Sequence record: PP761450.1
Origin: Escherichia phage LHE287
Strand: one strand, 5' to 3'
Length of the DNA: 64,000 nt
Shown here: piece after piece, positions 1,660-53,100 of the stretch
Layout: each line of letters starts with the position of its first letter
How positions within the stretch are numbered: position 1 is the first letter of the stretch
Translations under genes and position numbers: made by a program
The notes under the pieces: generated by a model
Seen by the model: the letters and a program-made list of their open reading frames with translations, nothing else
What the model was told of the DNA's origin: nothing
Databases searched by the model: none

Positions 1660-2853
1660 ATGAACAAGACCATTTTCGATACCCTTTCCCTCGACCGCAA
1701 TCTGGTCCATTGGGAAGATTATCTCTACAAGCACACCCCGTGCGAACTTGTCGTCAACCCCGAAACCAATCAGCAGGTCTGGTTCAAGCGTGAAGATTAT
1801 TTTGCGCCGCTGTCCAATTATGCAAATGGACAGCAGGGCATCAACGGCAGCAAACTCCGCCAGGCCATCTGGTTGATGGTTGAGCACCTCAAGGCCGGAG
1901 GCTCCCCTGACATCATCCATGGTACTGTCGTTGGTAGTCCGCAGTCCCCTATGGCGACGGCAGTCTCTCGGCACTTCGGTGGCAAGACAACCACTGTACT
2001 CGGAGCGACCAAACCCACCACCTGTATGAACCATGAAATGGTGAAAATGAGCGCCTGGTTCGGTAGTGAGTTCAACTTCGTCGGCTCGGGTTACAACAGC
2101 ACCATCCAGCCGCGCTGTAAGAAGTTGATCGAACAACAGAATCCAAAGGCGTACTATCTGGAATATGGTATCACCCTCGACCATACAGCGCATTCTCCTG
2201 AGCGCATCGCTGGCTTCCATATGCTGGGTGGCGAGCAGGTTGCCAACATCCCAGACCATATCACCGACCTGATTATCCCAGCCGGATCGTGCAACTCTTG
2301 CACAAGCATCCTGACCGGGCTGGCAATGCATCCGAAGCCTAATCTGAAGCGTGTGTATCTGATTGGCATCGGTCCTAACCGCCTTGACTTTATCGAGAGC
2401 CGTCTGCGCATCATCGGCAAACATGCCAATCTGCCGCACATTGTCGACTTCACCCGTCGCTATCACGACAACCCAGACTATGTACACGGCAAGAAGGAGC
2501 TTCAGCATGCCTCTAAGAGCGTTTCGCTGGCTGGCCTCCTAAGTGGTATCAGGAAGAAGGAAGAGCCAGAGGTCGTGCTTCCTCGCTTTGAGGTACACCA
2601 TTGGGATCTTCACACCACTAATTGGGTTCGTTACAATGACCTGATGGAATATCAGTGGGGTGATATCGAATTGCATCCTCGCTATGAAGGCAAGGTCATG
2701 ACCTGGGTTCAGCAACACAAGCCCGAGTTGCTGAACGAGAACACTCTGTTCTGGATTGTGGGCAGCAAGCCGTACATTGAGCCAATGAAGACAGCATGCC
2801 CTGAGCTGGCTATCCCCGAAGCAGTACCTGTAAACGAATTCACCCCTTCCTGA
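1660..2853 (+). CDS. fold-type II PLP-dependent enzyme (ACC deaminase / D-cysteine desulfhydrase / Trp-synthase-beta superfamily)
   Basis: N-terminal motif FKREDYF...GINGSKLRQA resembles the KRED...GGNKxRKLE PLP-lysine region; later loop PAGSCNSCTS in the position of the phosphate-binding glycine loop; RBS AGGAGA. Confidence 0.55.
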   Translation: MNKTIFDTLSLDRNLVHWEDYLYKHTPCELVVNPETNQQVWFKREDYFAPLSNYANGQQGINGSKLRQAIWLMVEHLKAGGSPDIIHGTVVGSPQSPMATAVSRHFGGKTTTVLGATKPTTCMNHEMVKMSAWFGSEFNFVGSGYNSTIQPRCKKLIEQQNPKAYYLEYGITLDHTAHSPERIAGFHMLGGEQVANIPDHITDLIIPAGSCNSCTSILTGLAMHPKPNLKRVYLIGIGPNRLDFIESRLRIIGKHANLPHIVDFTRRYHDNPDYVHGKKELQHASKSVSLAGLLSGIRKKEEPEVVLPRFEVHHWDLHTTNWVRYNDLMEYQWGDIELHPRYEGKVMTWVQQHKPELLNENTLFWIVGSKPYIEPMKTACPELAIPEAVPVNEFTPS

Positions 2854-5628: not shown

Positions 5629-8628
5629 ATGACCGTTTTCTATACGAACGTTGCCCGCAGGGGCAATGACCTGTTGATTCGAATTGCAGATGACATGGGT
5701 AATCGCCGTCTGTTGAAAAAGAAATTCGAACCCACTCTCTATTTACCCACGGCTGACTATTCAAATGTTGAAAAGGTCGGTCTTCTCAATGAACCCCTGG
5801 TAGCCAAGCAGTTCCCTTCCATGCGTGACGCTGACAACTATCTTGAAGAGTACAAGGAAGTCCAGGGTGCTTCCATTTACGGACAGACCGATTATGCATA
5901 CCAGTTCATCGCCCATAGCTTTCCTGGAAAGATTGAGCCGGATTACTCCAACATCCATATTGCTAACCTCGATATCGAAGTGTTCTCCGCCGGGTGGAAA
6001 GACGGAAAGATGACCAAAGGTCCATTCCCTCACCCAACCATTGAGCAGCAGACGTTCAAAGGGAATGAGGCGCGCATTCGCCGCTTCCATAAACAAGTGC
6101 TGGCTAACCATGAATTTGTCCGTGAGCACTTCCCTGGTTCTTTCATCAGCAACAACGTCACTGATCAGTTCCCTATCATTGATAGCAATGGCAAGATCAC
6201 CCAGGACATGAATGCGGCGTTCCCCATTACCCTGATCCAGCTTCAGGATATGGCGACCAATAAGTTCATGGTCTGGGGTATGCCCTGTGCCAAAGATCGT
6301 AACAAATTCGCATACGACACCGAAGACAAAGAGATCGGCGGCCTTGAGGTTGTTTATCAGGAGTTCACCACCGAACAAGATCTGCTGCGCTCGTTCCTAG
6401 ACTTCTGGTCACAGCGTCAGTTCGACGGCTGGACAGGCTGGAACATTGAGACGTTTGATAGCCCTTATCTTGTTGAGCGCATGAATCAGGTTCTGGGTGA
6501 AGCCGAAACATCGCGCCTCAGTCCTTGGGGTATCATTAAGAAGCGTATCATTCGCGATAAGAAGGGCGATATCACGACGTATCAGTTCGTGGGTTGCCCT
6601 ATGCTCGATTATATGCAGATCTACAAGAAACACACGTACACCACCCGTGAACGCTACTCTCTTGACTGGATTGCGTATTGTGAGCTGGGTGAGAAGAAGA
6701 TGGACTACAGTGAGAGCAAGTCGCTCTTTGATCTGTACTTCAACGACTACTGCAAACACACCCGATATGGTATCAAAGACGTTAAGCTGGTATGGCGACT
6801 TGAACAGAAGCTGCGCCTGCTCCAGCTGATGTTCGTCCTGGCCTACCGCACCAAGTCCAACTATGAAGACGGTCTGGGCACTGTGGCTCCGTGGCTGGCC
6901 ATGTGCTACTATCGCCTGTACGAGAAGGGGATAGTGCCTAAGATCCAGCGTGTATACGATGGTCCGACCGACTTTGAGGGCGCATACGTCATGGATGTGA
7001 CACCAGGAATCTACTTCTGGGTCTTCTCGGAAGATTTGAACTCCCTGTATCCTCACATCATACAGCAGTACAACCTCGGTCCAGAGACTATCGTTGGCGA
7101 CAAACACCAGCGCCGCGAGATTATTGAGGCTATGTGTGAAGAGCTGGCTGCTCAGATGAATAACATGGCAACGCCGATGCACAAACGTCGGTTGATGAAA
7201 GCCCTTCACGACAAGCTGTTGCGTGCGGTTGACGAACGCCTGCAGGTTGTTGATGAGTTGGTTGCCCTGGGTGAGTTCCACTTTGAAACCCTGCGCCGCT
7301 ACAACGTGTCGTTCACGCCGAACGTTCAATTCTTCAGCAACGAGAAGATGTCGTTCCTGTCTGAAATCATGCGTGGTATCTACAGCGACCGTAAAGTAGA
7401 GAAGGCCAAGGGTCTGAAGTATGAGCAGTGGGCTGGCTGGTGTAAAGAGATGTCGAAGGGCGACTTCCATCTTGAGTCTGCCATGAAGTCTCGCTACTAT
7501 GACCCAGAGTGGTATGAAGAGCACAAGAACATTGATCTTGATGCCCTGACCGAAGTGATGAAGAAGTGGGAAGACCTGGGCGTTGCTCAAGATACCCTAC
7601 AGCAAGGTCTGAAGATCTTGATGAACGCAGGTTATGGCGCTATCTCGAACGTCTGGTTCAAAGAGTACTTCAACCTCAACATTGCCGAAGCCATCACCAC
7701 ATCCGGTCAGCTGATCAACAAGTGGAACAAGCGTTACACTGATGACTATCTGAACAAGCTGTGTGGTACAACAGGCCAGGACTTCGTCATCGCAGGTGAT
7801 ACCGACTCCAACTACATCTGCATTGAGCGTCTTGTCAAGCAGTTGTGGCCTGATGTTACTGACCATCATGCTATGGTTGATAATATCGACCAATGGATCA
7901 AAGACAACTACCAGCCGAAGACCAATGAGTGGGCACAGCTTCTGTGTAACACCATGAACGGATTTGAACAGCGCATGGTATGGGAGCGTGAGGTCATTGC
8001 GTCAGCCGCTGTCTGGCGAGCCAAGAAGATGTATGCCATGGCCGTGTACGACAGTGAGGGTATCAAGTACGAGAAGCCGAAGATCAAGTTCAAAGGTCTG
8101 GAAGCCCGCAAGTCCACCACGCCGGAATGGTGTCGTGAGCGTCTTGTCAAGTGTTATGAGAAGATCCTACTCGGCACCGAAGAGGAAGTACAGGCGCTCA
8201 TCTCCCAGTACAAAGAGGAGTACATGAAACTCTCTGTAGACGATATCGCCAAGGCTTCCGGCGTGTCCGACATAGAGAAGTGTGTGGCTGCTGACGGATC
8301 GTTCATCTCTGGTGCTCATTTTGCTGCCAAGGCGTGTGTGGGCTACAACCGTCTGGTTGAGAAGAACGAAGATCTGGGTCTACCGATGATCGAGTCGGGT
8401 GATAAGGTACAGATGGTGTTGTTGAAGCCGGGCAACCCGTTTGGGCAGAACTACTTTGCATATCCTGAGTTCTTCCCCGAGGAGCTTGGTCTGGGCAAAT
8501 GGGTGGATTATCAGGCGGCCTTTGAGAAGTCCTTCATTGATCCGATTCAGTCTATCCTCGACGTGGTCGGCTGGTCACACAAGCGCCGTGTGAACCTTCT
8601 TGCCATGATGCAAAAGAAGAAAGGTTGA
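5629..8628 (+). CDS. 43: family B DNA polymerase (T4 gp43-like), 999 aa
   Basis: Exonuclease motif LDIEV, polymerase motif A DLNSLYP, motif C GDTDS; size and T4-like genomic context. Confidence 0.95.
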   Translation: MTVFYTNVARRGNDLLIRIADDMGNRRLLKKKFEPTLYLPTADYSNVEKVGLLNEPLVAKQFPSMRDADNYLEEYKEVQGASIYGQTDYAYQFIAHSFPGKIEPDYSNIHIANLDIEVFSAGWKDGKMTKGPFPHPTIEQQTFKGNEARIRRFHKQVLANHEFVREHFPGSFISNNVTDQFPIIDSNGKITQDMNAAFPITLIQLQDMATNKFMVWGMPCAKDRNKFAYDTEDKEIGGLEVVYQEFTTEQDLLRSFLDFWSQRQFDGWTGWNIETFDSPYLVERMNQVLGEAETSRLSPWGIIKKRIIRDKKGDITTYQFVGCPMLDYMQIYKKHTYTTRERYSLDWIAYCELGEKKMDYSESKSLFDLYFNDYCKHTRYGIKDVKLVWRLEQKLRLLQLMFVLAYRTKSNYEDGLGTVAPWLAMCYYRLYEKGIVPKIQRVYDGPTDFEGAYVMDVTPGIYFWVFSEDLNSLYPHIIQQYNLGPETIVGDKHQRREIIEAMCEELAAQMNNMATPMHKRRLMKALHDKLLRAVDERLQVVDELVALGEFHFETLRRYNVSFTPNVQFFSNEKMSFLSEIMRGIYSDRKVEKAKGLKYEQWAGWCKEMSKGDFHLESAMKSRYYDPEWYEEHKNIDLDALTEVMKKWEDLGVAQDTLQQGLKILMNAGYGAISNVWFKEYFNLNIAEAITTSGQLINKWNKRYTDDYLNKLCGTTGQDFVIAGDTDSNYICIERLVKQLWPDVTDHHAMVDNIDQWIKDNYQPKTNEWAQLLCNTMNGFEQRMVWEREVIASAAVWRAKKMYAMAVYDSEGIKYEKPKIKFKGLEARKSTTPEWCRERLVKCYEKILLGTEEEVQALISQYKEEYMKLSVDDIAKASGVSDIEKCVAADGSFISGAHFAAKACVGYNRLVEKNEDLGLPMIESGDKVQMVLLKPGNPFGQNYFAYPEFFPEELGLGKWVDYQAAFEKSFIDPIQSILDVVGWSHKRRVNLLAMMQKKKG

Positions 8629-8654: not shown

Positions 8655-8690
8655 TCCCCCTGTTAACCCTTTGACAAACAGGTGATTGAA

Positions 8691-9032
8691 ATGAAACTCA
8701 ATAAGATTCTTCTGGTGTGTGCTCTGGCTTTCTCTACCACTGCGTGTTCCACCCTTCTGGACGTTGCTTCTACTGTAGACCTTGACGCGCCGACGTTCAC
8801 CAATGAGCAGGCCGTGTCCAAGATGGAAGACACCATCAAGGCGCATGCAGCACTGGACAACACTACCCCAGGTCCGCTCCAAACTGTCTGCAACTATGAC
8901 GATTCCATCCAGGAAGACGAAACTTACCACTGCATCACCTACGTGAAGCAGGCCTCCGTCGTTCTGTATGCAGATTGTACCGAAGAACAGTGTGTTGCTA
9001 CAGGCTACGATAAAGTTGAGGAAGACAAATGA
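8691..9032 (+). CDS. putative secreted protein or lipoprotein (113 aa)
   Basis: Signal-peptide-like N-terminus MKLNKILLVCALAFSTTAC with Cys after the hydrophobic core; internal ATG chosen for its AGGTGA RBS. Confidence 0.5.
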   Translation: MKLNKILLVCALAFSTTACSTLLDVASTVDLDAPTFTNEQAVSKMEDTIKAHAALDNTTPGPLQTVCNYDDSIQEDETYHCITYVKQASVVLYADCTEEQCVATGYDKVEEDK

Positions 9033-9805
9033 ACAACCTGGTTTGTATCTATGATATGAAATCAAAGGTCGGTGGCCTGTATCGCGTCCTCGTGGATGTT
9101 GACCTGACGTTGGTCGACAGCCTCTCCCCTTGGGTGCAGTGGTTTAACGAAGAGAATCTCAGCTTATCCAAGCATTATGACGGTCATGGACCAGCGCCGT
9201 TCCAGCCGATTACCAAAGAGTGTTATATGTCCCATGCTGGCGACCTGGCTATTCTGATGCGTGAACGTGCGCATCCGGCGTGGCTATACCATGAAGTCCA
9301 ATTGGGGATGCACAAACAACGTGTGCCAAGCGGTAACGATCCTATGGACTGGTGGCGTCGCCCTGACTTGTACGCCAAGATGAACCCACTTCCTGGCGCT
9401 TACGAGTTCCTGGTGAATCTGAAGAAGATTCTGCTCGAAGACTTTGACAATGTTGAATTCATCGCAGTGTCCAAGTGTGAGCCGGAACACGAGCGCAGCA
9501 AGCGCCAGTTTGTCTATGACAAGTTCCCTGGTATCTTCAACGGGTTTGTCAGCACCGACGAAAAGCATCTGCTGGCTGGCGATGTCCTGATTGATGACAA
9601 TCCGAAGTATGTCGAGCCATGCGGCCTGAACAACATCTTTGTCATCTTTGTTCCTCAGGGCAATTATGAAAAACTGGATCTTTCGAATTCGGAAGACATG
9701 CTTTATATTAAACCAGTAGAAGGCCAGAATCACTTCGACTTCCTGAACCGCAATATTGTCGAAGTGGTGAACCGCCTGATTAGTCATTATCAATACGTCC
9801 GATAG
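9029..9805 (+). CDS. HAD-superfamily phosphatase, candidate 5'(3')-deoxyribonucleotidase
   Basis: HAD motif I VDVDLTLVDS near the N-terminus and DD motif VLIDDNPKY; start overlaps the upstream stop. Confidence 0.45.
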   Translation: MNNLVCIYDMKSKVGGLYRVLVDVDLTLVDSLSPWVQWFNEENLSLSKHYDGHGPAPFQPITKECYMSHAGDLAILMRERAHPAWLYHEVQLGMHKQRVPSGNDPMDWWRRPDLYAKMNPLPGAYEFLVNLKKILLEDFDNVEFIAVSKCEPEHERSKRQFVYDKFPGIFNGFVSTDEKHLLAGDVLIDDNPKYVEPCGLNNIFVIFVPQGNYEKLDLSNSEDMLYIKPVEGQNHFDFLNRNIVEVVNRLISHYQYVR

Positions 9806-9814: not shown

Positions 9815-10120
9815 GTGCAAGAACAATCCAAGTTCGGGGAAACCCCAGACAAGCATTCCGGTGATAGCGACATGGATGGTGTGATTATCTATGTGAACAA
9901 CTTCATTCGTCAGCAGGAGACTCCAACTCCTATCGGTGCAGCCAAGGCTCTTCATGATGTACTGGTGAAGATCGGCCAGCGCTCTGAAGCAGATGAAATC
10001 TTCTATAACTTCGACGACCAGTATAAAGTTAAGTTTGAAGAGAATGGCCACCCACAGGTTGCTGTGTTCTGGGCACCTTGGCTGGGCGGCGTGAGCTGGC
10101 GTATTGAGGATGCTGTGTAA
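9815..10120 (+). CDS. hypothetical protein (101 aa), GTG start
   Basis: GTG start with strong AGGAGGA RBS; stop overlaps the next start (TAATG). Confidence 0.5.
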   Translation: MQEQSKFGETPDKHSGDSDMDGVIIYVNNFIRQQETPTPIGAAKALHDVLVKIGQRSEADEIFYNFDDQYKVKFEENGHPQVAVFWAPWLGGVSWRIEDAV

Positions 10121-11037
10121 TGGCAAAAATTATCGTAGTGAAAGGAACCAGCGGTACGGGTAAGGGCACCCGTGTTGTCCAGTTCATCGAATGGCTGCGC
10201 ACTAAGCTGGAGCCTACCGAACTGACCTACACCGTTGGTGACAAGACTCGCCCGTTTGGCTTGAAGTTCGGAGAGCTGAAGTTAATCTTCGTTGGACAGT
10301 ACACCGTGTCTAACAAATCCGGCCTGGCTTCCTGGACTTCAATGGATGCAATCCATGCTGCTACAGGCTCAGGCGATATTGCTCGTGATCTAATCAAGTG
10401 CTGGTTGGTTCAGGGATACACTCTGGTGTGCGAGGGTGAACCCCTCATGCTGTCGGACAAATGGCGTCCTGAATGGATGTTCAAGAACTATCCGATTGAA
10501 TCATTGGCGCTGCTGTACTTTGCGTACCCCGACCGCTATCAGTACGATGCTCGTATCCGTGGTCGATCTGGTAAAGAAGCAGGGAACTCCGGCTGGTCGC
10601 GCAACGAATCTTACTACAAGGAGTTTGAGAAGTCGAAGGCCGAAATGCTGGCGCTGGGCTTCACTGTGGCTGTTGATGATTACAGCGGACAGGATATCCT
10701 GTATAAATCACCGGATGCCAACACCCAGGAGTTCACGACCAAACAGCAGTCCGAGTTGGCGGTACTACCGTTCGACGCCCCGCTGTGGGTTGTGGGTAAT
10801 GCGATTTGTCATCAGATACGCTCTGAACTGCGCGGTGTTGACATGCACACCAAAGACTTCTACGCCTACTGTGAAACCAATCCGATGACTCGTGAAATCG
10901 GCGGCCAGGATCCTTTGGCGCACAGAGTCCCTGAGAAGCCGCAGAAGGCATCCAAAACTAAAACCAAGGCGAGCGCCCAGCCAGAAGCAACGAAGGCAGC
11001 GTCGCGCTCTCTCCTTGACCTGATGAAGAAGGGGTGA
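10120..11037 (+). CDS. P-loop kinase, paralog of 51529..52188; candidate 5-hmdU DNA kinase
   Basis: Walker A GTSGTGKGT at the N-terminus, Walker-B-like LVCEGEP; shares motif order with the second P-loop protein; basic low-complexity C-terminus. Confidence 0.5.
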   Translation: MAKIIVVKGTSGTGKGTRVVQFIEWLRTKLEPTELTYTVGDKTRPFGLKFGELKLIFVGQYTVSNKSGLASWTSMDAIHAATGSGDIARDLIKCWLVQGYTLVCEGEPLMLSDKWRPEWMFKNYPIESLALLYFAYPDRYQYDARIRGRSGKEAGNSGWSRNESYYKEFEKSKAEMLALGFTVAVDDYSGQDILYKSPDANTQEFTTKQQSELAVLPFDAPLWVVGNAICHQIRSELRGVDMHTKDFYAYCETNPMTREIGGQDPLAHRVPEKPQKASKTKTKASAQPEATKAASRSLLDLMKKG

Positions 11038-11237: not shown

Positions 11238-11611
11238 AAATTCAAATTCCTCGCGATGCTGTGGCTGTTGCGATCGACTACACCGGAAACGCCAAGCACA
11301 TTACTGCCGTGCGCCTGATTCCTGAAAAGAACTGCGTCATCCCTCAGTTCCAACTGAATGCCAATCCGTCATCCAAAGACTTCGGCAAGTGGTTGCAGGC
11401 TGCTCCGTTCCGTACCCAGACGAACGCTCAGATGTTCATCTCGGGTAAGACTCACACTGCAGCCCGTCTGTGGTTCGTGACCGCTGACCGTCGCTTTGTC
11501 GATATGTGGGAACGTCCGATGGGGTTCGTGAAGCCGGAAGATATTCAGCTGGCTCCTGAGCCTGAAGCTGTGGCTCCTGAAGAGGAAGCGAAAGATGCAT
11601 CATTTATCTAA
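11234..11611 (+). CDS. hypothetical protein (125 aa)
   Basis: Start overlaps the upstream stop (ATGA); internal ATG of the track ORF 11099..11611. Confidence 0.45.
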   Translation: MKIQIPRDAVAVAIDYTGNAKHITAVRLIPEKNCVIPQFQLNANPSSKDFGKWLQAAPFRTQTNAQMFISGKTHTAARLWFVTADRRFVDMWERPMGFVKPEDIQLAPEPEAVAPEEEAKDASFI

Positions 11612-12830
11612 AATGCCGACGGGCTATACGCCTCCGGCTGAATGGAAGTACCCGATTGACCTGGCTGTTGATTATCGCAAGCCTGAGAATCGCATGTACC
11701 TGCTCAAGGCTTGGGTGGAGGCGCTGTCCTACACAGAAGAGCACAACCAGCAGATGCGTCTGATGGACTATGCGATCGAAGTCACTGAAGGCATCAGCCT
11801 CGAACAGAAAGTCGAGCGCAAGATCTGGATGGCATTCCTGTGGGGTTGTTGCTATAACGCCGTCGGGCCGTGGACGATCTACAGTGAGTTCCCTGTGCCA
11901 CCTCAGTCTAAGGAAGAGATGCAGCGCTTCTCTGATTGGTATAATCTGAACTTTGATCGCATGCGATTCGATACCGACTGTCGCTACCGCAAGTCCAAGA
12001 TGATTCCGTGTGTTCAGTCCTATATTGACTGGCTGGCTGGTCGTACTCAATATGACGCTTTCCGTGGGATGTTGGTGTGCATCGATAAGACAGAACAATT
12101 CACCCAGCTGTGGGACACGGCGATGTCCTGGAAATACTTCGGTCGCCTGAGCGCCTGGAACTTCCTAGAAGCCCTGAACATGGTCTTCGGGAACGAATAC
12201 ACCATTGACGTCCCTGGCTTCATGCTGCGTGATCGTGATGGAAGCGAGTCCAACCGTAATGGCGCGGCGTTCTTGTCCAACCGTGACGATTGGGTGACTA
12301 AACACGGGAAGAAAAAGATCAACGGTTGTCCTATCACGGATGAAGAGTGTGACATCCTTGAGGCCGACCTTGAGCAGGCGTTCCAGGATTGTGTGGCTGA
12401 GTTCGGGCACCTGACGTTCATCAACCGCCTGAACTTTGAAACCTCCGGCGCTTGTTGGCTGAAGAAATTCTTCCGACTGAAGAATACCCGTTACATCGGG
12501 TGGGACGCAGAGCGTACCTGGGATGAGATAGACTACATGGAACGCGTCTGGCCTGAATACTCCTGCGCAGCGCTCTGGGAAGCCCGTTCGCTCTGGCTGC
12601 CAGATACCCTGTTGTGCGAAAAGGCTCCTGCAGGGCACGTTCCAGGCGTCCAGAAGTGGAAGATGCCTGTATTCTTTGAGACTGGTGTTCCTCTGCATAT
12701 CTGGCACCTGCAAAAGGGTACGCGCTGGGAACCGTCCGAGGTGTGTACGAACCTGAAGATGCCTGTGCGTAAGGTTGAGGACAAGTCGAAGTCCAGCAGT
12801 GTCAACCTCATGGCACTCTTGAAACGCTGA
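11595..12830 (+). CDS. hypothetical protein (411 aa), Trp/Cys-rich; candidate DNA-modification enzyme
   Basis: ATG with GAGGAAG RBS; co-transcribed downstream of the P-loop kinase; no motif recognised by eye. Confidence 0.5.
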   Translation: MHHLSKMPTGYTPPAEWKYPIDLAVDYRKPENRMYLLKAWVEALSYTEEHNQQMRLMDYAIEVTEGISLEQKVERKIWMAFLWGCCYNAVGPWTIYSEFPVPPQSKEEMQRFSDWYNLNFDRMRFDTDCRYRKSKMIPCVQSYIDWLAGRTQYDAFRGMLVCIDKTEQFTQLWDTAMSWKYFGRLSAWNFLEALNMVFGNEYTIDVPGFMLRDRDGSESNRNGAAFLSNRDDWVTKHGKKKINGCPITDEECDILEADLEQAFQDCVAEFGHLTFINRLNFETSGACWLKKFFRLKNTRYIGWDAERTWDEIDYMERVWPEYSCAALWEARSLWLPDTLLCEKAPAGHVPGVQKWKMPVFFETGVPLHIWHLQKGTRWEPSEVCTNLKMPVRKVEDKSKSSSVNLMALLKR

Positions 12831-33147: not shown

Positions 33148-33462
33148 ATGACCCCATTAAAAGAAATGTATGAGCGTCTGGCTGAACTACAGGCGAAGGA
33201 AAAGCGCTTCTCAGAAGAAGAGACAGAGCTGTCCGAGCTGAACACTTTGATCGCCACTCGTGAGAAGTACCTGCAGCGCTACATTAATCACCCGCCGCGC
33301 ATGGTAGACCGCGTCAGCACTATCATGGACCTGGATGAAGTTACTCCTGGCAAAGAAATCATTGTCAGGGAAGTCCACCAGATGGTCGCCATGGGTCAGA
33401 TCTTTGGTCGTGCAGACCAAGACGACATGATCTTCCTCCTTGAAAAGAAACTGGTGATGTGA
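33148..33462 (+). CDS. hypothetical protein (104 aa), coiled-coil-like
   Basis: ATG with GAGGAA RBS. Confidence 0.45.
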   Translation: MTPLKEMYERLAELQAKEKRFSEEETELSELNTLIATREKYLQRYINHPPRMVDRVSTIMDLDEVTPGKEIIVREVHQMVAMGQIFGRADQDDMIFLLEKKLVM

Positions 33463-33968
33463 TGGCTATCAAACCCCGTATGTTATTTGCGCATATGCGC
33501 TCGGCTCATGCATACGCTCTGTCCAGCTATGCCCAGCGCCTGAAGGTTGGCTGTGTTATCGTTGACCCGCGTGTTGACCAACCCCTGTCTATCGGTTGGA
33601 ACGGGACTGCTCCTGGCGCTCCTAATGTCTGTGAGAAGGAAGTAGACGGTCAACTGGTATCGGTGGGTGTTATCCACGCCGAGGAGAATGCTCTGAGCAA
33701 ACTCCCCCAGCACACTGAAGACTGTTGTGGTCTGGTGATGTTTGTCACTCATAGTCCATGCCCAGAGTGCACCCGTCGTATTATCGACAGTGGCAAGATC
33801 GCTAAAGTGTTCTACGACCGACCATATCGTATCATAGACGGCATTATTGAAATGCTGGATGCTGGGATTGAAGTATATCGCATGGTCGATCAGATTGTTG
33901 TAGTCCAGCATTCTGTGAAGAACGGCGAACTGGTATCCACCCCTGTTTTAGTGAACCCTGACAAATAA
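33459..33968 (+). CDS. cd: dCMP deaminase (cytidine/deoxycytidylate deaminase family)
   Basis: Zinc-binding motifs HAEENAL and HSPCPEC. Confidence 0.8.
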   Translation: MMAIKPRMLFAHMRSAHAYALSSYAQRLKVGCVIVDPRVDQPLSIGWNGTAPGAPNVCEKEVDGQLVSVGVIHAEENALSKLPQHTEDCCGLVMFVTHSPCPECTRRIIDSGKIAKVFYDRPYRIIDGIIEMLDAGIEVYRMVDQIVVVQHSVKNGELVSTPVLVNPDK

Positions 33969-41270: not shown

Positions 41271-41274
41271 CAGA

Positions 41275-41496
41275 TCACACCTCTTTGTGATTCTTCATCT
41301 TGCGGACAGTGCCCACAAACCCAAGATCCTTCCCGCAATGGGTGCAGATAGCATGGCAAGCATGGTTCTCACGATAGGTGCTGTGTTTGCAGCGCCATTG
41401 CTTGAACGCCGAACGGGCAACTGGGATCAAGGCGATCAAGAAGACGATGCCGGATATCTGAAGTTCAACCAAGAACTTCGCCCACCAGAAACTCAT
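41275..41496 (-). CDS. small membrane protein with C-terminal Cys/His cluster
   Basis: Internal start chosen to avoid overlap with the ligase gene; TM helix FLVELQISGIVFLIALIPV and motif HACHAICTHCGKD. Confidence 0.3.
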   Translation of the reverse strand: MSFWWAKFLVELQISGIVFLIALIPVARSAFKQWRCKHSTYRENHACHAICTHCGKDLGFVGTVRKMKNHKEV

Positions 41497-41500
41497 ATAC

Positions 41501-47446: not shown

Positions 47447-47776
47447 CTACCCCACCAAAAATTTATTATATTCCTGAGCATTACGCTGCATGAGGTCTAC
47501 AAGGATATCCCCTGACACCTCAGTGAACAAGTCATTTTCTTTCAAATTCACAAACATCAGACGCAATGGTTTCTTCAATATATCAGTCACGAAAGACAGG
47601 CGGGGTTCGCCGTCCACTTCGTTGATGGCCACCTTGCCGAACCGGAATTGAACACCACGGAATTTGCCAGAAGTGATCTTGATGATCGCCAGCTGATCAG
47701 CACCAGGGTCGATGATTGTGTAGTTATTGGGGGAGTCTCCTCCCCCTCCACTGTTATTCGCTTGTGTTAATAACAT
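47447..47776 (-). CDS. hypothetical protein, in the position of T4 gene 40
   Basis: Short ORF between the uvsX and helicase genes; start uncertain (the track ORF overlaps uvsX by 74 nt). Confidence 0.3.
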   Translation of the reverse strand: MLLTQANNSGGGGDSPNNYTIIDPGADQLAIIKITSGKFRGVQFRFGKVAINEVDGEPRLSFVTDILKKPLRLMFVNLKENDLFTEVSGDILVDLMQRNAQEYNKFLVG

Positions 47777-48839
47777 GGTCCATTTGCTCCAGCATGTTAG
47801 CAGGCATAACAGTACCGTTAGAAACACCGAACATTTTCTTCACGTCATCGGCGAAGTTGACATTCTCCAGCAGCGGATACCAGAAATCATCATCCATCTG
47901 ACGCTTCTGATATTTCTTTTCCTTCTCAGGATCGAAACCACCCTTGGCTGTACGCACATACCAACCGGAAGACGGCATATCAACATAACCCAGAGCACGA
48001 GCGATCTCAAGCAGGCCGCTCCAGCGATCAATACCACCGTTGTACAGTACCGTCACAGGGAGCTTGGCTTTCTCTTTGACATGGCGACCTTTCATGATGC
48101 TTATGTTGAAGTTCCAACCCAGCAGATCTTTGTCTTCCTTCACCTGAGAACGGGTGATAAACCAGATCAAGTTGGATGATAAGAAGCCCTGCTTGCCGCC
48201 TTTGATGTTGGGCTCGGCATACTGGTTGCCGATCTCATCGTAATAGGAGTTGATCCAAACACACACGAGATTTTTGCTGTTGATTTCGGGAGTCATGACA
48301 CGCCAGAAGCTGTTAAGGGCACGGGCGCGGGTCATGTCTTGAGTGTCGTTCCCTTTGATCGCATCTTCAACTTCCTTGGTGGAGGGAAGTTGGCTGATAG
48401 AGTCGATGAAGATTATAACATGGTCGCCTTTCTTGACTTCCTGTAGGATCTGCAGCAAGCGGATCTTGGTCTGTTCAACGTTGTCGATCGGTACGTACAG
48501 GACGCGGTCCATGTCAATGCCCATAGAGGTCCAGTAATCGGCGTTGGCACCCTTTTCTGAGTCCGCAAAGACGCAGATAGCATCAGGGAACTTGTCCATG
48601 TACGCCTTGACGTCTACCAGACCGAACATCGTTTTGAAGGTACGGGAATCACCCACCATCATCTTGATACCGGAGATCAGACCGCCGTCAATACGCCCAG
48701 ACCATGCGATATCGATCAGGGGAATACCAGTAGAACAGATGATAGACGGTTCCAGAGCGTCGGATTTGGACAGCACTGAAGCCTGGTCATCGTGTTTCTT
48801 AGCAACCTTCAGCATGCGGTCCATTAATGAACTGGCCAT
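47754..48839 (-). CDS. uvsX: UvsX recombinase (RecA-like)
   Basis: RecA-type N-terminal ICSTGIPLID region, core ATPase; position upstream of the helicase as in T4. Confidence 0.75.
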   Translation of the reverse strand: MASSLMDRMLKVAKKHDDQASVLSKSDALEPSIICSTGIPLIDIAWSGRIDGGLISGIKMMVGDSRTFKTMFGLVDVKAYMDKFPDAICVFADSEKGANADYWTSMGIDMDRVLYVPIDNVEQTKIRLLQILQEVKKGDHVIIFIDSISQLPSTKEVEDAIKGNDTQDMTRARALNSFWRVMTPEINSKNLVCVWINSYYDEIGNQYAEPNIKGGKQGFLSSNLIWFITRSQVKEDKDLLGWNFNISIMKGRHVKEKAKLPVTVLYNGGIDRWSGLLEIARALGYVDMPSSGWYVRTAKGGFDPEKEKKYQKRQMDDDFWYPLLENVNFADDVKKMFGVSNGTVMPANMLEQMDHVINTSE

Positions 48840-49366
48840 TTCACTTCCTCTTTATTGTTGATCGTCGTTAATAATTCTACACCCATAACCTTCTGGGACA
48901 AAATGTTAACCGCCTCTTGGATGCTCTTCAGGGACATTGTCTCAACAAGTGACGATGCGTCATTATGCCGGTCGGTTAGGTACATATTGCGCAGATTGTT
49001 GTAGTTCGTGCGGTTGATGCACGCAGTGTTCAGTGCTATATTCAGGATATACATCATCTGTTCAATGGTTACATCCTTTGGCATAGCGTGGATGTAATAG
49101 ATCGAGCCTTCAAAATAGACGTCTACCAGTTCATCTGGTATCTTGATGCCACCACCGGCATACTCTTCGATCATCCTGAACAGAGACTCTGGTTGCTCGC
49201 TGGCGATCTTATGCGTAACAGTCGCCGAAAGACCGTCGCCCGGTTTAACAGGCCTGGTGTATTCGGTAAAGAATACATTATGACCGCCGCCGATGATGTG
49301 CTCGGCGAAATTAGCGGATGCGTTCGCCGCGTTGTCTGCATGATATGAAACGACGACTGTAAACAT
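48824..49366 (-). CDS. hypothetical protein (180 aa)
   Basis: Translationally coupled within the nucleotide-metabolism operon; no motif recognised. Confidence 0.45.
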   Translation of the reverse strand: MFTVVVSYHADNAANASANFAEHIIGGGHNVFFTEYTRPVKPGDGLSATVTHKIASEQPESLFRMIEEYAGGGIKIPDELVDVYFEGSIYYIHAMPKDVTIEQMMYILNIALNTACINRTNYNNLRNMYLTDRHNDASSLVETMSLKSIQEAVNILSQKVMGVELLTTINNKEEVKWPVH

Positions 49367-49920
49367 TAGAACTCCAGGGTCAGAGGGGTTTCTGCGGACT
49401 TATCGTAACCCGCACCGCCAGCAGCACGCAGACGGTTGCGATCGTTCTTGCGTTTGTGTGCCAGTATGTAAGTCTCAATGTCGATCTCCATATAAGAACA
49501 CGCAGACGACAGGAAGAACATGAGAGTCTCAACGCAAGGATCGTTCATGAATTGCCCAAGGCGGTACGTAACATTGCGATGCCCTACAACACCCAAAGCA
49601 GATGGGGTGAATTCGCGATTACTAAGGACTTCAAATTCTTCTTCGATCTCACCTTTGGTGCGGTCCACAAGGATGAAGCACAACATGAAGTGTACCACGT
49701 CTACCAGTTCATAAACTGCGTTCGTATGGTCAAACCCGATGTCGTTGCCATAGACCTTCCAGTCACGGGTGGTTTCATCAAGGAACTCTGCCCACTCACG
49801 ATAGATAGAGTTGATGACTGCGTTCTGACTCCATACATTCTTCCACTCTTCCCCAAAGTAGGCCACGTTAGTGGCCTTTTGGAGTTCGAGCAGGCTTTTG
49901 ATATGCCCTGCTGTGATCAT
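49366..49920 (-). CDS. all-alpha NTP pyrophosphohydrolase (MazG / dimeric dUTPase-like; T4 gp56-like dNTPase)
   Basis: Acidic helix pattern NAVYELVDVVHFML ... EIEEEFE; placed between the dNMP kinase and recombination genes. Confidence 0.4.
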   Translation of the reverse strand: MITAGHIKSLLELQKATNVAYFGEEWKNVWSQNAVINSIYREWAEFLDETTRDWKVYGNDIGFDHTNAVYELVDVVHFMLCFILVDRTKGEIEEEFEVLSNREFTPSALGVVGHRNVTYRLGQFMNDPCVETLMFFLSSACSYMEIDIETYILAHKRKNDRNRLRAAGGAGYDKSAETPLTLEF

Positions 49921-50486
49921 TTACGTTCTCCGTAGAATTTAACGAACGGTGCCCAACCATCAAATGGATTGAGGAATTCGTAGTCCACTTTCATTTGGTC
50001 AATGAAAGCCTCTATATCGTCCTCTATGATACCAGCACGGTCGGCCTTTGAAATACGGGTGATAGGACATTTCGTACTCAGCGCCCATTCATATTCCTGA
50101 GGGGTACGCAGATCGCTCACGATATAATGGACGTGGGGGTTCTGCTCTACCAGAGGAAGCTGGAAGCGCTTGAAGAATGCCAGGAACAGATCGGGTTGTA
50201 CGTAACGCAAGCCCGTATCGCTGCCTAGATGAAGCCAGATCTGCCGTGGAGTTAAGCCCTTGGGGTTATCAGGGTGCACGTAAGGAACGTCCTTCACGGC
50301 ATCCTCTACCTCCGCTGGCAGCCATGGATAGATGTAGTTGGCCACACGGCGCAGTTCATCTGAGAACGAAAGGCGCTGGATGTCCATATCACCCTGTAGT
50401 TGGTGATAGCTGATGAGGGACTCCAAACAGAAGTCCTTACCGGAGCGCTTGCGCCCCGTAAAGAATTCAAGATTTGGATACATCAT
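49917..50486 (-). CDS. 1: deoxynucleoside monophosphate kinase (T4 gene 1-like)
   Basis: P-loop GRKRSGKD matches the T4 dNMP kinase GxKRSGKD signature; overlaps ThyA-like gene by ATGA. Confidence 0.65.
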   Translation of the reverse strand: MMYPNLEFFTGRKRSGKDFCLESLISYHQLQGDMDIQRLSFSDELRRVANYIYPWLPAEVEDAVKDVPYVHPDNPKGLTPRQIWLHLGSDTGLRYVQPDLFLAFFKRFQLPLVEQNPHVHYIVSDLRTPQEYEWALSTKCPITRISKADRAGIIEDDIEAFIDQMKVDYEFLNPFDGWAPFVKFYGERK

Positions 50487-51529
50487 ACTACACCTTCCAG
50501 GAACTTAGGATCAATGATCTTGCGGTCAACCGGGGAATGGGTGAGCGCGATGTTCAAGCCATGATCCTGAATCAGGTCCAGGTTAATGAGCTTTTCGTTC
50601 AGTTTGCAGTGCAGACAGTACGCCATCTGTACAATCAGGCCACGATCAGCATCATATTCCTTCAGGTGGGCGACCACAGTTTCCCACGGGCTGCCGATAT
50701 CACAGTGATGAAGCACACCAGTGAACAGATTGCGGATATGGTTCTGGTTGGTCACGTTCGTGAAGTGAATCATGGAGTTGATGAACCCAGCTTCTACTTT
50801 GGTGTCCTTCGTGATCTTGCCAAGCTGCTTCTGGCTGACTTCATTGTTGTAGTAATGAAGATTGTTAGAGAATAGCTTGTACTGACCGACATCAACATCT
50901 AACACCTGAGCAATCACTTCCTGAAGAATAGAGAACTCAATGAAGTTGATTGAACTCATCCCCCACAGAACATCCTGTGAGCGGTTGATGACCGTCAGGT
51001 TCAGACGACCTTCAACGATGGAGAACAACAGAGCCAGATTACACACCATGTCCTTGGTCTTCGCTTCGCCGCTCTCGCTGAACTTCGCCAGACCAGCATC
51101 CGAATCTAGAGCCGGGTCATAGATGGTGAGGTACGCCTGGCGAGTGTTTGGGTTCTTGCGCAGGCGGTTGATAACGCTATCCAGCTGGCCATGGGCGTAC
51201 AGACGCGGACCATAAGCAGCTCGCCATGTTACCCCATCATCCGAAAAGTTAGCAGCGCGAGGCAATACGCGTGACAGGAACTTTATGTCGTTGCGACCTG
51301 ACAACACCCAGAAGGTCTCGCCGATGGCAGCGATAGCCGATGAGTTGCGACCTTCAACGGAGAGCCAGCGGTCACGGATGTCGGCGACGGTTATGGTCAC
51401 GCCATCAAGGAAGCGGGTGCTATCAGTATTGATTTCAGCATTACCAGGATCAGATTCGATCCCGAATTCACGGATAGCCAAGACAGCCTGCTTCAGCATG
51501 TCATTGTTGTTAATTGCTTTGATTTCCAT
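50483..51529 (-). CDS. thymidylate-synthase-family enzyme; candidate dUMP hydroxymethylase
   Basis: ThyA-fold motifs RQAYLTIYDP, Cys in KDMVCNLALLF, and NRSQDVLWGMSSINFIEFSIL (RSxD ... NI/F region; Asn suggests a dUMP substrate); the hydroxymethylase role is inferred from context. Confidence 0.6.
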   Translation of the reverse strand: MEIKAINNNDMLKQAVLAIREFGIESDPGNAEINTDSTRFLDGVTITVADIRDRWLSVEGRNSSAIAAIGETFWVLSGRNDIKFLSRVLPRAANFSDDGVTWRAAYGPRLYAHGQLDSVINRLRKNPNTRQAYLTIYDPALDSDAGLAKFSESGEAKTKDMVCNLALLFSIVEGRLNLTVINRSQDVLWGMSSINFIEFSILQEVIAQVLDVDVGQYKLFSNNLHYYNNEVSQKQLGKITKDTKVEAGFINSMIHFTNVTNQNHIRNLFTGVLHHCDIGSPWETVVAHLKEYDADRGLIVQMAYCLHCKLNEKLINLDLIQDHGLNIALTHSPVDRKIIDPKFLEGVV

Positions 51530-52188
51530 CAGATACTCCCAAAATCACGACAGAGGAATGCCATCACAGCCTGGTCTACTGTTAGGCCGTGAGACTTCAT
51601 CATACCCGCAGCCACCGTAGGGAACAAGTCTTTATGTCGTTGACGATGGTCATGAACTCTCTCCCACTTCTCGACCACCAGACTTTCATTGAAGTCCACA
51701 CCACCGTTACGTGATTTAACGCGGGAGATACACGTTTCAAGGGGAGTGTCCATAAAGAGCACAACCAATTCACGTGGTGGGCGTGTCAGGCGGGGGATCC
51801 AAGAACTCAATAATGTGGATGGAATGATACCTTCGAAAATCACATCATATTTCAAGTATTCTGGTTGGTCAGCAATAGACAACGCGAACAACATCTGCTC
51901 AGTGTCCTTCAGGGAATCAACCCCCTTGGACTTCGACTTGTCATATTTACCGATACAGACCACGTTGAACGAAGGACAGACAGTCAGCATGACCTTGCCG
52001 TTATGGGTCACGACATACGCCTGAGGATCCCTCTCCGCCAGCTGAGACGGCACAGTGGATTTACCGCTACCATTGGAGCCTTTGACGTAGTAGATTTGCC
52101 CTCGTGCTGGGTAGATCCCCTTTACGACGGGTGGTTTAAAGAATGTGTGGACGGGGCGCTTCATCAGCCCCTTCAGGGAGTAGGACAT
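51529..52188 (-). CDS. P-loop kinase, paralog of 10120..11037
   Basis: Walker A GSNGSGKST, Walker-B-like DVIFEGIIP; same motif order as the other P-loop kinase; first gene of the coupled operon. Confidence 0.5.
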   Translation of the reverse strand: MSYSLKGLMKRPVHTFFKPPVVKGIYPARGQIYYVKGSNGSGKSTVPSQLAERDPQAYVVTHNGKVMLTVCPSFNVVCIGKYDKSKSKGVDSLKDTEQMLFALSIADQPEYLKYDVIFEGIIPSTLLSSWIPRLTRPPRELVVLFMDTPLETCISRVKSRNGGVDFNESLVVEKWERVHDHRQRHKDLFPTVAAGMMKSHGLTVDQAVMAFLCRDFGSI

Positions 52189-52263
52189 AAACTGCTCCGA
52201 TAAACAAAAGGAGCTGCTATTATAGCAGCCCCTTCATCTTTTGAACAGTTTCTGAACTTAAAT

Positions 52264-53100
52264 TTACACAGCTTTCGCTTCAGCCAGAGCCTGTGGAAGC
52301 CATTCATTGATCGCCTTAACCAGAGACTCAGCATCAGACTCTTTGATCTTCTGACGTTTGGTGAAGGACTTGCCGTTCACGTACAGGCTGAAGCCCCAGC
52401 CACCGGAAACGATAGGCGCAACGTCGACATACGTATTGGTGCGGGCGTGAAGGTTTTCAGGGTTAGCCAGTTCGGTGACCGGGAACTGGAACCAACGCAT
52501 GTCTGGGTTCACGTAGCTCAGGAACACGCCGGGAACAACACCAGCTTCAATCGCCGCCAAGACCGGACCGTGATCAGAAGCGCGAGCCAAGTCAACCATT
52601 TCCTCACGTTTGGTGTGACGGCGTTTACGCTCTACCAGCGCCGCCTGCGGAGTCAGGGTCTTACCCTTCGATGCTTCTTTCAACATAGAAGACGCCAAGG
52701 AACCGATTTTCGCGTCGGACGGCTGATTACCTTCTTCCAGCGCCGCGTTGACTGCATCTTCAACCGCGTCTACCGGGGCGTCGGACACTGGGGCTTCACA
52801 TGCATCGGCAGAGATCGGTGCTTCAGCATCAATGGTTTCAGCGACTTTCAGGGATACTTCAGCTTGGGCTTGCTCTTGGGCTTGCGCCAGAGCCTGCTGA
52901 GTTTCTTCCTTCTCTTCGGCGCTCAGACCTTCAATCAGTTCGAAGCCGTTGGCAGCCTGAAGAACACCTTCAACCATACGGCGCAGGGTAACGTTTCCGA
53001 TGATCAGACCTGCTTCTTTGATTTCAGCCTGGATAGCCGCAACGTCTTTGCCTTCAATTTCAATTTTGGTTCCAGAATCCACATGAAGAATATATGACAT
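52264..53100 (-). CDS. hypothetical protein with acidic low-complexity centre (278 aa)
   Basis: ATG-initiated ORF; central Ala/Glu/Gln-rich region. Confidence 0.45.
   Translation of the reverse strand: MSYILHVDSGTKIEIEGKDVAAIQAEIKEAGLIIGNVTLRRMVEGVLQAANGFELIEGLSAEEKEETQQALAQAQEQAQAEVSLKVAETIDAEAPISADACEAPVSDAPVDAVEDAVNAALEEGNQPSDAKIGSLASSMLKEASKGKTLTPQAALVERKRRHTKREEMVDLARASDHGPVLAAIEAGVVPGVFLSYVNPDMRWFQFPVTELANPENLHARTNTYVDVAPIVSGGWGFSLYVNGKSFTKRQKIKESDAESLVKAINEWLPQALAEAKAV

Follow-up and report, generated by a model that had tools for sequence, protein, structure and literature searches.

What do the tightly overlapping minus-strand genes of Escherichia phage LHE287 make: a nucleotide that replaces thymine in the phage genome, as the earlier note had proposed, or a precursor that is further modified once it is in DNA? 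The window, i.e. the whole stretch of 64,000 nucleotides that we analysed (sequence record PP761450.1), belongs to an Agtrevirus phage (Ackermannviridae, subfamily Aglimvirinae); at the DNA level the block is 98% identical in the Escherichia phages YX22, RPN242 and A221 (Agtrevirus) and the locus is 92% identical in phage AG3. We consider it highly probable that this ViI-like block makes 5-hydroxymethyl-dU (5-hmdU) nucleotides and then begins their conversion, within DNA, to 5-(2-aminoethoxy)methyl-dU (5-NeOmdU). The operon is not new, as it has already been described (Kutter 2011, Lee 2018, Lee 2021). Its features, in the 5' to 3' order of the minus strand, are:

52207..52235, minus strand: GC-rich hairpin with a 13-bp stem, then a T-run (terminator scan)
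51529..52188, minus strand: 5-hydroxymethyl-dU DNA kinase (5-HMUDK, HMUD1 type), ViI gp67 orthologue (PF18748)
50483..51529, minus strand: dUMP hydroxymethylase, thymidylate-synthase-fold core with a MilA-type C-terminal helical domain (Pfam Thymidylat_synt 3e-16)
49917..50486, minus strand: T4 gp1-family dNMP kinase (phrog_139, 4.9e-47)
49366..49920, minus strand: all-alpha NTP pyrophosphatase of the dimeric-dUTPase / T4 gp56 family (PF08761 dUTPase_2)
48824..49366, minus strand: ACT-like protein (PF24021), found in Ackermannviridae only
47754..48839, minus strand: UvsX/RecA-like recombinase (Pfam RecA 2e-15, T4_UVSX_C 2e-9)
47447..47776, minus strand: small ORF of 109 aa, from the ORF list, annotated in the relative CECAV_050 (L001 18624-18953)

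The five ORFs from the first kinase to the ACT-like gene had been described earlier and are present at exactly these positions; the short overlaps claimed for them were likewise found, successive junctions measuring 1, 4, 4 and 1 nt (TGATG- and ATGA-type), with a GGAG-like ribosome-binding site 5' of every start codon. The chain is longer than had been claimed. The uvsX gene and the ACT-like gene share 16 nt, which makes uvsX part of the same chain: the final 16 nt of the ACT-like gene double as the uvsX start, and the uvsX ribosome-binding site AAAGAGGAAGTGAAATG lies inside the ACT-like coding sequence, just 5' of the overlap. The 109-aa ORF overlaps uvsX by 23 nt, closes the chain and is followed by a DnaB-like helicase gene, giving seven genes and six overlapping junctions. 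Overlaps are common in a 43-kb annotated relative (25 of its 58 same-strand junctions), and the seven-gene chain is the longest overlapping run among these junctions. Gene order and overlap lengths are identical in Salmonella phage ViI, a member of a different subfamily, and again in the most divergent contig that has the fifth (ACT-like) gene, so the arrangement is conserved and not a product of chance; the 16-nt ACT-like/uvsX overlap was also found in ViI and in the contig L007. The operon proteins are 56-90% identical to those of ViI, the ACT-like protein (56%) and the pyrophosphatase (63%) being the most diverged. The hairpin, of which the window holds one copy, sits 20 nt 5' of the operon's first start codon, and its apex includes TGCTATAAT, a match to the extended -10 consensus; ViI, CECAV_050 and the divergent contig L007 share its core at 100% identity, while the flanking bases vary. 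Judged by its sequence, it may be a terminator of the upstream gene, the operon promoter, or both.

Elsewhere in the window, the following genes bear on the same pathway:

1660..2853, plus strand: PLP-dependent decarboxylase, ViI gp226 orthologue (91.2% identical to YP_004327553)
5629..8628, plus strand: family-B DNA polymerase (Pfam DNA_pol_B_exo1 and DNA_pol_B; 86.3% identical to the ViI polymerase)
9029..9805, plus strand: NT5C-type HAD 5'-deoxynucleotidase (PF06941, 34.3 bits, cut-off 24.8, E 2.8e-8)
10120..11037, plus strand: second 5-hmdU DNA kinase (HMUD2), ViI gp243 orthologue (PF18747, 527 bits, E 1.5e-158)
11595..12830, plus strand: amino acid:DNA transferase (aGPT-Pplase clade 2), ViI gp247 orthologue (PF18724 ADDT, 203 bits, E 7e-60)
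33459..33968, plus strand: dCMP deaminase, for dUMP supply (PF00383, 4.3e-16; phrog_174, 2e-53)

The deaminase and the HAD nucleotidase had both been predicted from the sequence, and both assignments held: the former has the HAEENA and PCPEC motifs, and the latter has DVDLT and DD motifs, is 76% identical to ViI orf00239 and is a candidate dTMPase. The polymerase probably incorporates 5-hmdUTP. The second kinase is 84.2% identical to ViI YP_004327565 (gp243), for which 5-hmdU DNA kinase activity has been shown, and the transferase is 89.3% identical to ViI YP_004327568 (gp247), a serine:DNA transferase of demonstrated activity (PMC8989533). The decarboxylase matches phrog_3650 over its full length and PALP under the cut-off (1.5e-7), and keeps a Lys aligned to K92 of ViI gp226, the enzyme that converts O-serinyl-thymidine to 5-NeOmdU (PMC8989533). 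No homologue of ViI gp160 (aGPT-Pplase clade 1) was found among the scanned ORFs of the window, and synteny suggests that this gene lies outside it.

Within the operon, the product of the first gene had been listed as a P-loop kinase among the precursor genes, but it is not a nucleotide kinase: it matches PF18748 with 363 bits (E 3.6e-109, covering profile positions 1-195 of 196) and is 88.1% identical to the syntenic ViI gp67 (YP_004327432), which was shown biochemically to phosphorylate 5-hmdU in DNA (PMC8989533); its identity to the YuA gp13 kinase is 30%. It is therefore predicted to act post-replication, on the 5-hydroxymethyl group of 5-hmdU in DNA. The likeness to the T4 set gp42, gp1 and gp56, which the earlier note had drawn, holds by homology for the next genes. 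The dNMP kinase belongs to phrog_139, as does T4 gp1 (1.8e-65), has a P-loop GRKRSGKD that matches GVKRSGKD of T4, is 90.5% identical to ViI 'dnk' and would convert 5-hmdUMP to 5-hmdUDP. The pyrophosphatase matches PF08761 (36.8 bits, cut-off 22.9) and phrog_173 (2.3e-40), to which T4 gp56 also belongs (5.8e-39), and its ExxE and ExxD motifs align to the Campylobacter jejuni dUTPase 1w2y; it is probably a dUTPase that gives the hydroxymethylase its dUMP, and possibly also a dTTPase.

The protein encoded by 50483..51529 bears the name thymidylate synthase in most GenBank and RefSeq records, its Pfam Thymidylat_synt match exceeds the cut-off and the nucleotide-binding and catalytic core residues are all conserved (in E. 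coli numbering E58, Y94, R126, C146, R166, S167, D169, N177, H207 and Y209), so that the operon could be read as a plain dTTP-supply module. However, with 59 bits the protein misses every NCBIfam thymidylate-synthase equivalog cut-off (at least 108 bits), H147 is changed to Asn, the IWDEW segment is absent and the C-terminal lid of thymidylate synthases is swapped for a helical domain; YuA gp17 and CP-51 gp100 likewise have Asn at H147, lack IWDEW and carry long C-terminal extensions. Comparison with protein families, as suggested by the earlier note, favoured MilA and the enzymes of hmdU phages: the profile of the hydroxymethylase scores 167 bits with MilA and 86 bits with the best thymidylate synthase, its AlphaFold model (pLDDT 92.9) matches MilA over the full length (TM-score 0.75/0.81), and the protein matches phrog_5131, the YuA and CP-51 family, at 5e-59. 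The earlier observation of an Asn in the pyrimidine-recognition position was also borne out: Asn195 aligns with E. coli N177, a position taken by Asp in T4 gp42, and is invariant in 30 homologues, and together with the grouping with enzymes of hmdU phages it points to a dUMP-derived 5-hydroxymethyl precursor. Moreover, the only known substrate of the adjoining kinase is 5-hmdU in DNA, and phage CBA120 does not take up 3H-thymidine. We infer from the sequence, the fold and the clade that the protein is a dUMP hydroxymethylase and not a conventional thymidylate synthase, and we attach almost no probability to the dTTP-supply reading.

If the precursor is 5-hmdU, it could also be the final base, with 5-hmdUTP as the operon's product, thymine wholly excluded and the first gene a nucleotide kinase, a view that the Ackermannviridae literature held until 2018 and of which the precursor half is correct. 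We nevertheless regard it as very improbable: the first gene encodes the orthologue of the ViI gp67 DNA kinase, the enzymes that use up 5-hmdU in DNA have intact orthologues in the window, and in relatives it is contradicted by ViI virion DNA, which is free of 5-hmdU and in which about 60% of the thymidine is retained. The earlier prediction of a modified genome with 5-hmdU therefore stands for the precursor and fails for the final base, since the gp243, gp247 and gp226 orthologues (84-91% identical) would convert 5-hmdU further, so that the end product is most likely 5-NeOmdU, with 5-hmdU as an intermediate. "Thymine-replaced" was also an overstatement: in the measured relatives only 16-40% of thymidine is replaced, 5-NeOmdU making up about 40% of T in ViI and 16% in phiHS2, and virion DNA retains about 60% thymidine in CBA120, as in ViI, and about 84% in phiHS2. 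It is unlikely, though somewhat less so, that Agtrevirus phages share the route to 5-phosphomethyl-dU and then append a different group. Direct chemistry for Aglimvirinae (Agtrevirus, Limestonevirus) is absent from the literature found, the paper on PP35, a phage of this subfamily, lists the same genes with the structure and ratio of the modification still to be determined, and related transferases of various phages use glycine, putrescine or serine (PMC8989533). Against this, the transferase and decarboxylase are 89% and 91% identical to the ViI enzymes, and a 301-Da base is common to the Kuttervirus phages ViI, CBA6 and CBA120, Vibrio phage 1.255.O and the Taipeivirus phiHS2.

The closest known system to the one that we favour, ending in 5-NeOmdU, is that of ViI and CBA120 (PMC5889632, PMC8989533, PMC3184105), whose operon (Vi01_061c to 056c) agrees with this one in every gene and overlap and comes with the same accessory genes gp226, gp243 and gp247, an identical upstream hairpin and proteins 56-91% identical. 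Those phages are Cvivirinae, the product here is predicted from the genes, and no mechanistic difference was detected in the gene comparison. Kutter et al. 2011 (PMC3184105) had already reached this conclusion for AG3, CBA120 and ViI; 3H-thymidine is not incorporated by CBA120, whose thymidylate-synthase-like protein clusters with those of SPO1, phiW-14 and YuA. Pseudomonas phage M6 / YuA (5-NedU), Delftia phage phiW-14 (putrescinyl-T) and Bacillus phage SP10 (glutamyl-T) share the succession of dUMP hydroxymethylase (YuA gp17 being 32% identical to the enzyme here), 5-hmdU DNA kinase and aGPT-Pplase transferase, but append other groups, use other tailoring enzymes (in M6 one of the radical SAM type), order their genes differently, have a family A polymerase and lack the ACT-like protein. 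The T4 hydroxymethyl-dC pathway shares the homologous trio of thymidylate-synthase-fold hydroxymethylase, gp1-family dNMP kinase and gp56-family pyrophosphatase, as well as post-replicative decoration of the hydroxymethyl group. By contrast, T4 uses dCMP (Asp179) where the enzyme here is predicted to use dUMP (Asn), gp42 lacks the MilA-like C-terminal domain, T4 decorates by glucosylation (glucosyltransferases) instead of phosphorylation and amino-acid transfer, and its replacement is complete where that here would be partial. The best solved-structure match, in sequence and fold and including the C-terminal helical domain, is MilA, the CMP 5-hydroxymethylase of Streptomyces rimofaciens (PDB 5B6D, 5JNH; PMC5175136), in which Asp186, Ala176 and Lys133' suit cytosine and ribose; in the phage enzyme, Asn stands for Asp186, Ser for Ala176 and Arg at R126, with Gln at E. 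coli R127 where YuA retains Arg, and on balance these pocket residues appear to fit uracil and deoxyribose.

We propose that dUMP would be supplied before replication by the dCMP deaminase together with the pyrophosphatase of the dimeric-dUTPase family, and that the thymidylate-synthase-fold enzyme would transfer onto it a methylene from methylene-tetrahydrofolate, followed by hydration to give 5-hmdUMP and not dTMP. The T4 gp1-type kinase would then form 5-hmdUDP and the host NDP kinase 5-hmdUTP, while dTMP and dTTP would be cleared from the pool by the NT5C nucleotidase, perhaps aided by the pyrophosphatase, an exclusion that fits the 3H-thymidine result in CBA120. The phage family-B polymerase would insert 5-hmdU opposite A. 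After replication, the DNA kinase of the operon and the paralogous kinase (10120-11037) would phosphorylate the hydroxymethyl group in DNA, as shown for ViI gp67 and gp243; at the transferase (11595-12830) the side-chain oxygen of serine would displace the phosphate, as shown for gp247; and the PLP enzyme (1660-2853) would decarboxylate the serine adduct to 5-NeOmdU, as shown for gp226, leftover 5-hmdU becoming ordinary thymidine. By this route the phage would carry a cationic side chain on a minority of its T positions, and many restriction enzymes would be blocked.

The five genes that the earlier note had placed on the minus strand are all present in the ORF list with exactly those coordinates, and their four junctions overlap by 1, 4, 4 and 1 nt, in agreement with the 1 to 4 nt claimed. 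A purine-rich ribosome-binding site precedes every start in this block, and the chain continues into uvsX, which shares 16 nt with the fifth gene, and into a 109-aa ORF, which shares 23 nt with uvsX.

Genes of the overlapping chain, with the identity of each product to its counterpart in Salmonella phage ViI
51529-52188, minus strand: 5-hydroxymethyl-dU (5-hmdU) DNA kinase by family and orthology; 88.1% to YP_004327432
50483-51529, minus strand: enzyme of thymidylate-synthase (ThyA) fold, predicted dUMP hydroxymethylase; 76%
49917-50486, minus strand: dNMP kinase; 90%
49366-49920, minus strand: NTP pyrophosphatase; 63%
48824-49366, minus strand: ACT-like protein; 56%
47754-48839: UvsX; 70%
47447-47776: 109-aa ORF

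Overlap by itself is nothing unusual in this genome, since it occurs at 25 of 58 same-strand junctions in an annotated relative (43 kb); what is special is the length of the run, whose six successive overlapping junctions are the longest in that relative, together with its conservation. Escherichia phages YX22, RPN242 and A221 share the 3.4-kb block at 98% identity, Shigella phage AG3 at 92% and Dickeya Limestonevirus phages at 89%, and all of these are Ackermannviridae of the subfamily Aglimvirinae. Salmonella phage ViI, from the other subfamily, matches the window in gene content, gene order and overlap lengths (Vi01_061c to 056c), and the contig whose homologue of the fifth gene diverges most has the same architecture. 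A helicase gene lies 7 nt beyond the 109-aa ORF, and the nucleotide-metabolism, recombination and helicase genes form a single tightly packed unit. Upstream of the operon, 52264-53100 (minus strand) encodes a 278-aa protein of phrog_3905 that has no Pfam match, carries a long acidic central segment rich in Ala, Glu and Gln, and shares 65% identity with the counterpart in ViI.

The first gene had been listed as a P-loop kinase of the precursor operon, and a role as a nucleotide kinase has to be given up. Its product matches PF18748 (HMUDK_HMUD1) with 363.2 bits (cut-off 27, E 3.6e-109) over profile positions 1-195 of 196, and the gene occupies the same operon position as that of ViI YP_004327432 (gp67, Vi01_061c), which moves the gamma-phosphate of ATP onto 5-hmdU inside DNA (Lee et al. 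2021, PMC8989533). Since gp67 acts on 5-hmdU in DNA, 51529-52188 is not a nucleotide kinase; by family and by orthology to gp67, it is a 5-hmdU DNA kinase. RefSeq and PHROG 800 label this family, including the ViI member (8204-8866 of the ViI sequence, L003), as "terminase small subunit", a propagated error.

Two readings of the second gene were weighed, a conventional thymidylate synthase and a hydroxymethylase acting on dUMP. The thymidylate-synthase fold is recognised by Pfam (3e-16), and the protein was aligned with E. coli ThyA, T4 gp42, the ViI protein, and YuA gp17 and CP-51 gp100, two proteins of hmdU-associated phages; the ThyA sequence used agrees with the fragments printed by the database search. 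In this alignment C163 corresponds to the catalytic Cys, E. coli C146, and E58, Y94, R126, C146, R166, S167, D169, H207 and Y209 (E. coli numbering) are conserved, with Gln in place of R127; the catalytic and nucleotide-binding core residues are invariant across 30 homologues. N195 aligns with E. coli N177, T4 gp42 D179 and D186 of MilA, a CMP 5-hydroxymethylase of solved structure, and the Asn is invariant in the 30 homologues, down to 28% identity. The RS pair of the protein aligns with RA in MilA. According to the rule drawn from the MilA structure, Asn selects uracil and Asp cytosine, and Arg with Ser selects deoxyribose (PMC5175136).

The remainder of the protein departs from a conventional thymidylate synthase. 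The IWDEW segment of the folate site is absent, with LPRAxxFSDDG in its place, His147 is replaced by Asn, and the C-terminal lid is replaced by a confidently predicted, MilA-like helical domain of about 110 aa (residues about 250-348). His147, the IWDEW segment and the C-terminal lid all matter for the hydride transfer of thymidylate synthases. YuA gp17 and CP-51 gp100 also have Asn for His147, also lack IWDEW and also carry long C-terminal extensions. The best score against the NCBIfam thymidylate-synthase equivalogs is 59 bits, and none of their cut-offs (108-427 bits) is reached. The earlier note had called for a comparison of ThyA and hydroxymethylase profiles; this was run, and the side of MilA and of the hmdU-phage enzymes scores higher: phrog_5131, which contains YuA gp17 and CP-51 gp100, is matched at 5e-59 and phrog_160, which contains T4 gp42 and general thymidylate synthases, at 1e-26, and the family profile gives 167 bits for MilA versus 86 bits for the best thymidylate synthase. 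When the AlphaFold model (pLDDT 92.9) is superposed on MilA, 342 columns are matched and the TM-scores are 0.75 and 0.81; with thymidylate synthases the match is confined to the core. The conventional ThyA reading was therefore rejected on the missed equivalog cut-offs and on the missing IWDEW segment, His147 and C-terminal lid, and we infer from alignment and predicted structure that 50483-51529 encodes a dUMP hydroxymethylase. The expected Asn is thus found as N195 in a protein that groups with the hmdU-phage enzymes, which agrees with the dUMP-derived precursor proposed earlier; a thymidylate-synthase phylogeny had previously been used to infer hmdU enzymes (Kutter et al. 2011, PMC3184105). 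Among the PDB matches listed, no entry is named as a dUMP hydroxymethylase, and the public label "thymidylate synthase" for this gene is wrong.

For the third gene, the product and T4 gp1 match the same stretch of phrog_139 (4.9e-47 and 1.8e-65, respectively), and their P-loops read GRKRSGKD and GVKRSGKD. BLASTP against T4 gp1 gave E 0.003 over only 24 residues, those of the P-loop, and a phmmer search of the kinase against PDB sequences returned no match, so that the link to the gp1 family rests on the shared PHROG profile. YuA gp18, which adjoins the YuA hydroxymethylase, was considered as a homologue of this kinase and discarded; it is not homologous and looks HD-type or nucleotidase-like. 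The fourth gene product matches PF08761 (dimeric dUTPase) with 36.8 bits (cut-off 22.9) and shares phrog_173 with T4 gp56. Its ExxE and ExxD motifs, which we take to be metal ligands, align with those of the Campylobacter jejuni dUTPase. The analogy with T4 drawn in the earlier note holds as homology for gp1 and gp56 (phrog_139, phrog_173) and as a shared fold for the hydroxymethylase. A dTTPase activity for the pyrophosphatase was put forward as a suggestion by Kutter et al. (PMC3184105). On a metagenomic phage contig from outside the Ackermannviridae (L009, 4428-7065), genes for a dUTPase_2 protein, a P-loop kinase (AAA_28) and a homologous hydroxymethylase adjoin in a gene order different from that of the window, with a dCTP deaminase gene close by; as the three are adjacent again there, the precursor trio recurs as a module.

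Elsewhere in the window, the dCMP deaminase and the HAD nucleotidase that had been claimed are borne out by their Pfam families and intact motifs, and further genes of the pathway are present.

Other pathway genes in the window
1660-2853: PLP decarboxylase, 91% identical to ViI gp226, Lys equivalent to K92 kept
5629-8628: family-B DNA polymerase (Pfam), 86% identical to the ViI polymerase
9029-9805: NT5C-type HAD nucleotidase (PF06941), DxDxT motif intact
10120-11037: HMUD2, second 5-hmdU DNA kinase (PF18747), 84% identical to ViI gp243
11595-12830: clade-2 amino acid:DNA transferase (PF18724), 89% identical to ViI gp247
33459-33968: dCMP deaminase (PF00383), HAE and PCxxC motifs

Of the ViI-type set, the window holds the two DNA kinases, the transferase of clade 2 and the PLP decarboxylase, whose catalytic Lys is kept. 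A homologue of gp160 (aGPT-Pplase clade 1) was looked for with Pfam in about 45 ORFs of the window and not found; synteny with ViI and with phage PP35 would place it beyond the 64-kb window. The second DNA kinase is wrongly labelled "guanylate kinase" in PHROG 4409 and in the ViI RefSeq record.

On this gene set, dUMP would be supplied by the deaminase and the pyrophosphatase and converted by the hydroxymethylase to 5-hmdUMP, which the gp1-type kinase and then the host NDP kinase would raise to 5-hmdUTP; the nucleotidase, and perhaps also the pyrophosphatase, would deplete dTMP and dTTP, and the phage polymerase would incorporate 5-hmdU. The steps that follow in DNA have been worked out for ViI, where the DNA kinases produce 5-phosphomethyl-dU, gp247 couples serine by the oxygen of its side chain, and decarboxylation by gp226 then yields 5-(2-aminoethoxy)methyl-dU, or 5-NeOmdU (PMC8989533). 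Given that orthologues of ViI gp243, gp247 and gp226 are present (84-91% identity) and that ViI DNA contains 5-NeOmdU, the final base here is most likely 5-NeOmdU and not the 5-hmdU proposed earlier. Exclusion of thymine at the level of the pool is supported in a relative, CBA120, which does not incorporate 3H-thymidine (PMC3184105). The packaged DNA of relatives is not thymine-free, with 5-NeOmdU at about 40% of T positions in ViI, CBA6, CBA120 and 1.255.O (PMC5889632) and at about 16% in phiHS2, and the remaining 5-hmdU is said to turn into thymine (PMC8989533); with about 16-40% of T replaced in these relatives, the prediction of a thymine-replaced genome probably goes too far. The earlier reading is kept as far as the precursor chemistry is concerned, and given up on what the first gene does, which base is the end product and how much thymine is replaced.

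The fifth gene product, of which nothing had been said beyond its position, matches PF24021 (ACT_phage) with 263 bits. Members of this family are single-domain proteins, very few in number, and all those that can be placed come from Ackermannviridae-like phages. The N-terminal half (residues 1-110) is predicted by AlphaFold with a beta-alpha-beta-beta-alpha-beta topology at a pLDDT of about 75-93, and the C-terminal half with low confidence. The protein diverges fast (39-56% identity, versus 76-90% for its neighbours), and its gene always lies between the pyrophosphatase gene and uvsX. The C-terminus KEEVKWPVH is invariant and is encoded across the ribosome-binding site and start codon of uvsX (48824-48839), a dual coding that accounts, at least in part, for the invariance. 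It is an improbable, though conceivable, candidate for a missing component of the pathway, either as an inhibitor or regulator of host thymidylate metabolism or as a partner in the conversion of unmodified 5-hmdU to thymidine; in the former role it would help to explain the exclusion of thymidine from the pool.

Directly upstream of the operon, in the intergenic stretch 52189-52263, a hairpin at 52207-52235 (minus strand) has a 13-bp stem followed by a T-run. Its core is 100% identical in ViI, in Salmonella phage CECAV_050 and in a divergent metagenomic relative, hence across subfamilies, although the genes beside it diverge strongly. The apex is TGCTATAAT, an extended -10 consensus, and the hairpin could be a combined terminator and promoter. 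TGNTATAAT is mildly enriched (5 observed versus 1.0 expected; 1 of 100 shuffles reached 5), and, the enrichment being mild, the promoter reading stays a suggestion. No further copy of the hairpin occurs in the window. An Rfam scan of the window returned tRNAs only, without an HDV-like ribozyme: tRNA-Met (CAT) at 230-306, tRNA-Tyr (GTA) at 561-644 and a weak third tRNA-like match at 651-720, all on the plus strand, the last scoring 32 bits, just over the Rfam cut-off, and not called by ARAGORN. In CECAV_050, a close relative, a gene of about 696 nt for a homing endonuclease adjoins the helicase-loader gene (L001, 11278-11973); this endonuclease gene is absent from the window at about 40800-41500, where the offset between the two genomes shifts by about 697 nt.

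Judged from its genes, the block is the ViI-type 5-NeOmdU system itself and not a variant of it. For CBA120, ViI and AG3, the use of hmdU had already been deduced from the place of their enzymes in a thymidylate-synthase tree, together with the dNMP kinase next to it and a putative dUTPase/dTTPase (Kutter et al. 2011, PMC3184105); AG3 was then listed among the phages with 5-hmdU DNA kinases in the study that identified 5-NeOmdU (Lee et al. 2018, PMC5889632), and the enzymology was worked out by Lee et al. 2021 (PMC8989533). The PP35 paper describes the same genes in an Aglimvirinae phage, the chemistry there being still to be determined, and in a review of 2024 the modification appears as a family trait of the Ackermannviridae. 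The system is thus already known, having been described, reconstituted in vitro and reviewed, and no new principle comes from the window. What value remains is practical, as the public annotation of the operon and pathway genes is still largely wrong. Biologically the system is important: the modified DNA of Ackermannviridae phages resists most type II restriction enzymes, and the enzymes of the pathway attract interest as DNA-chemistry tools.
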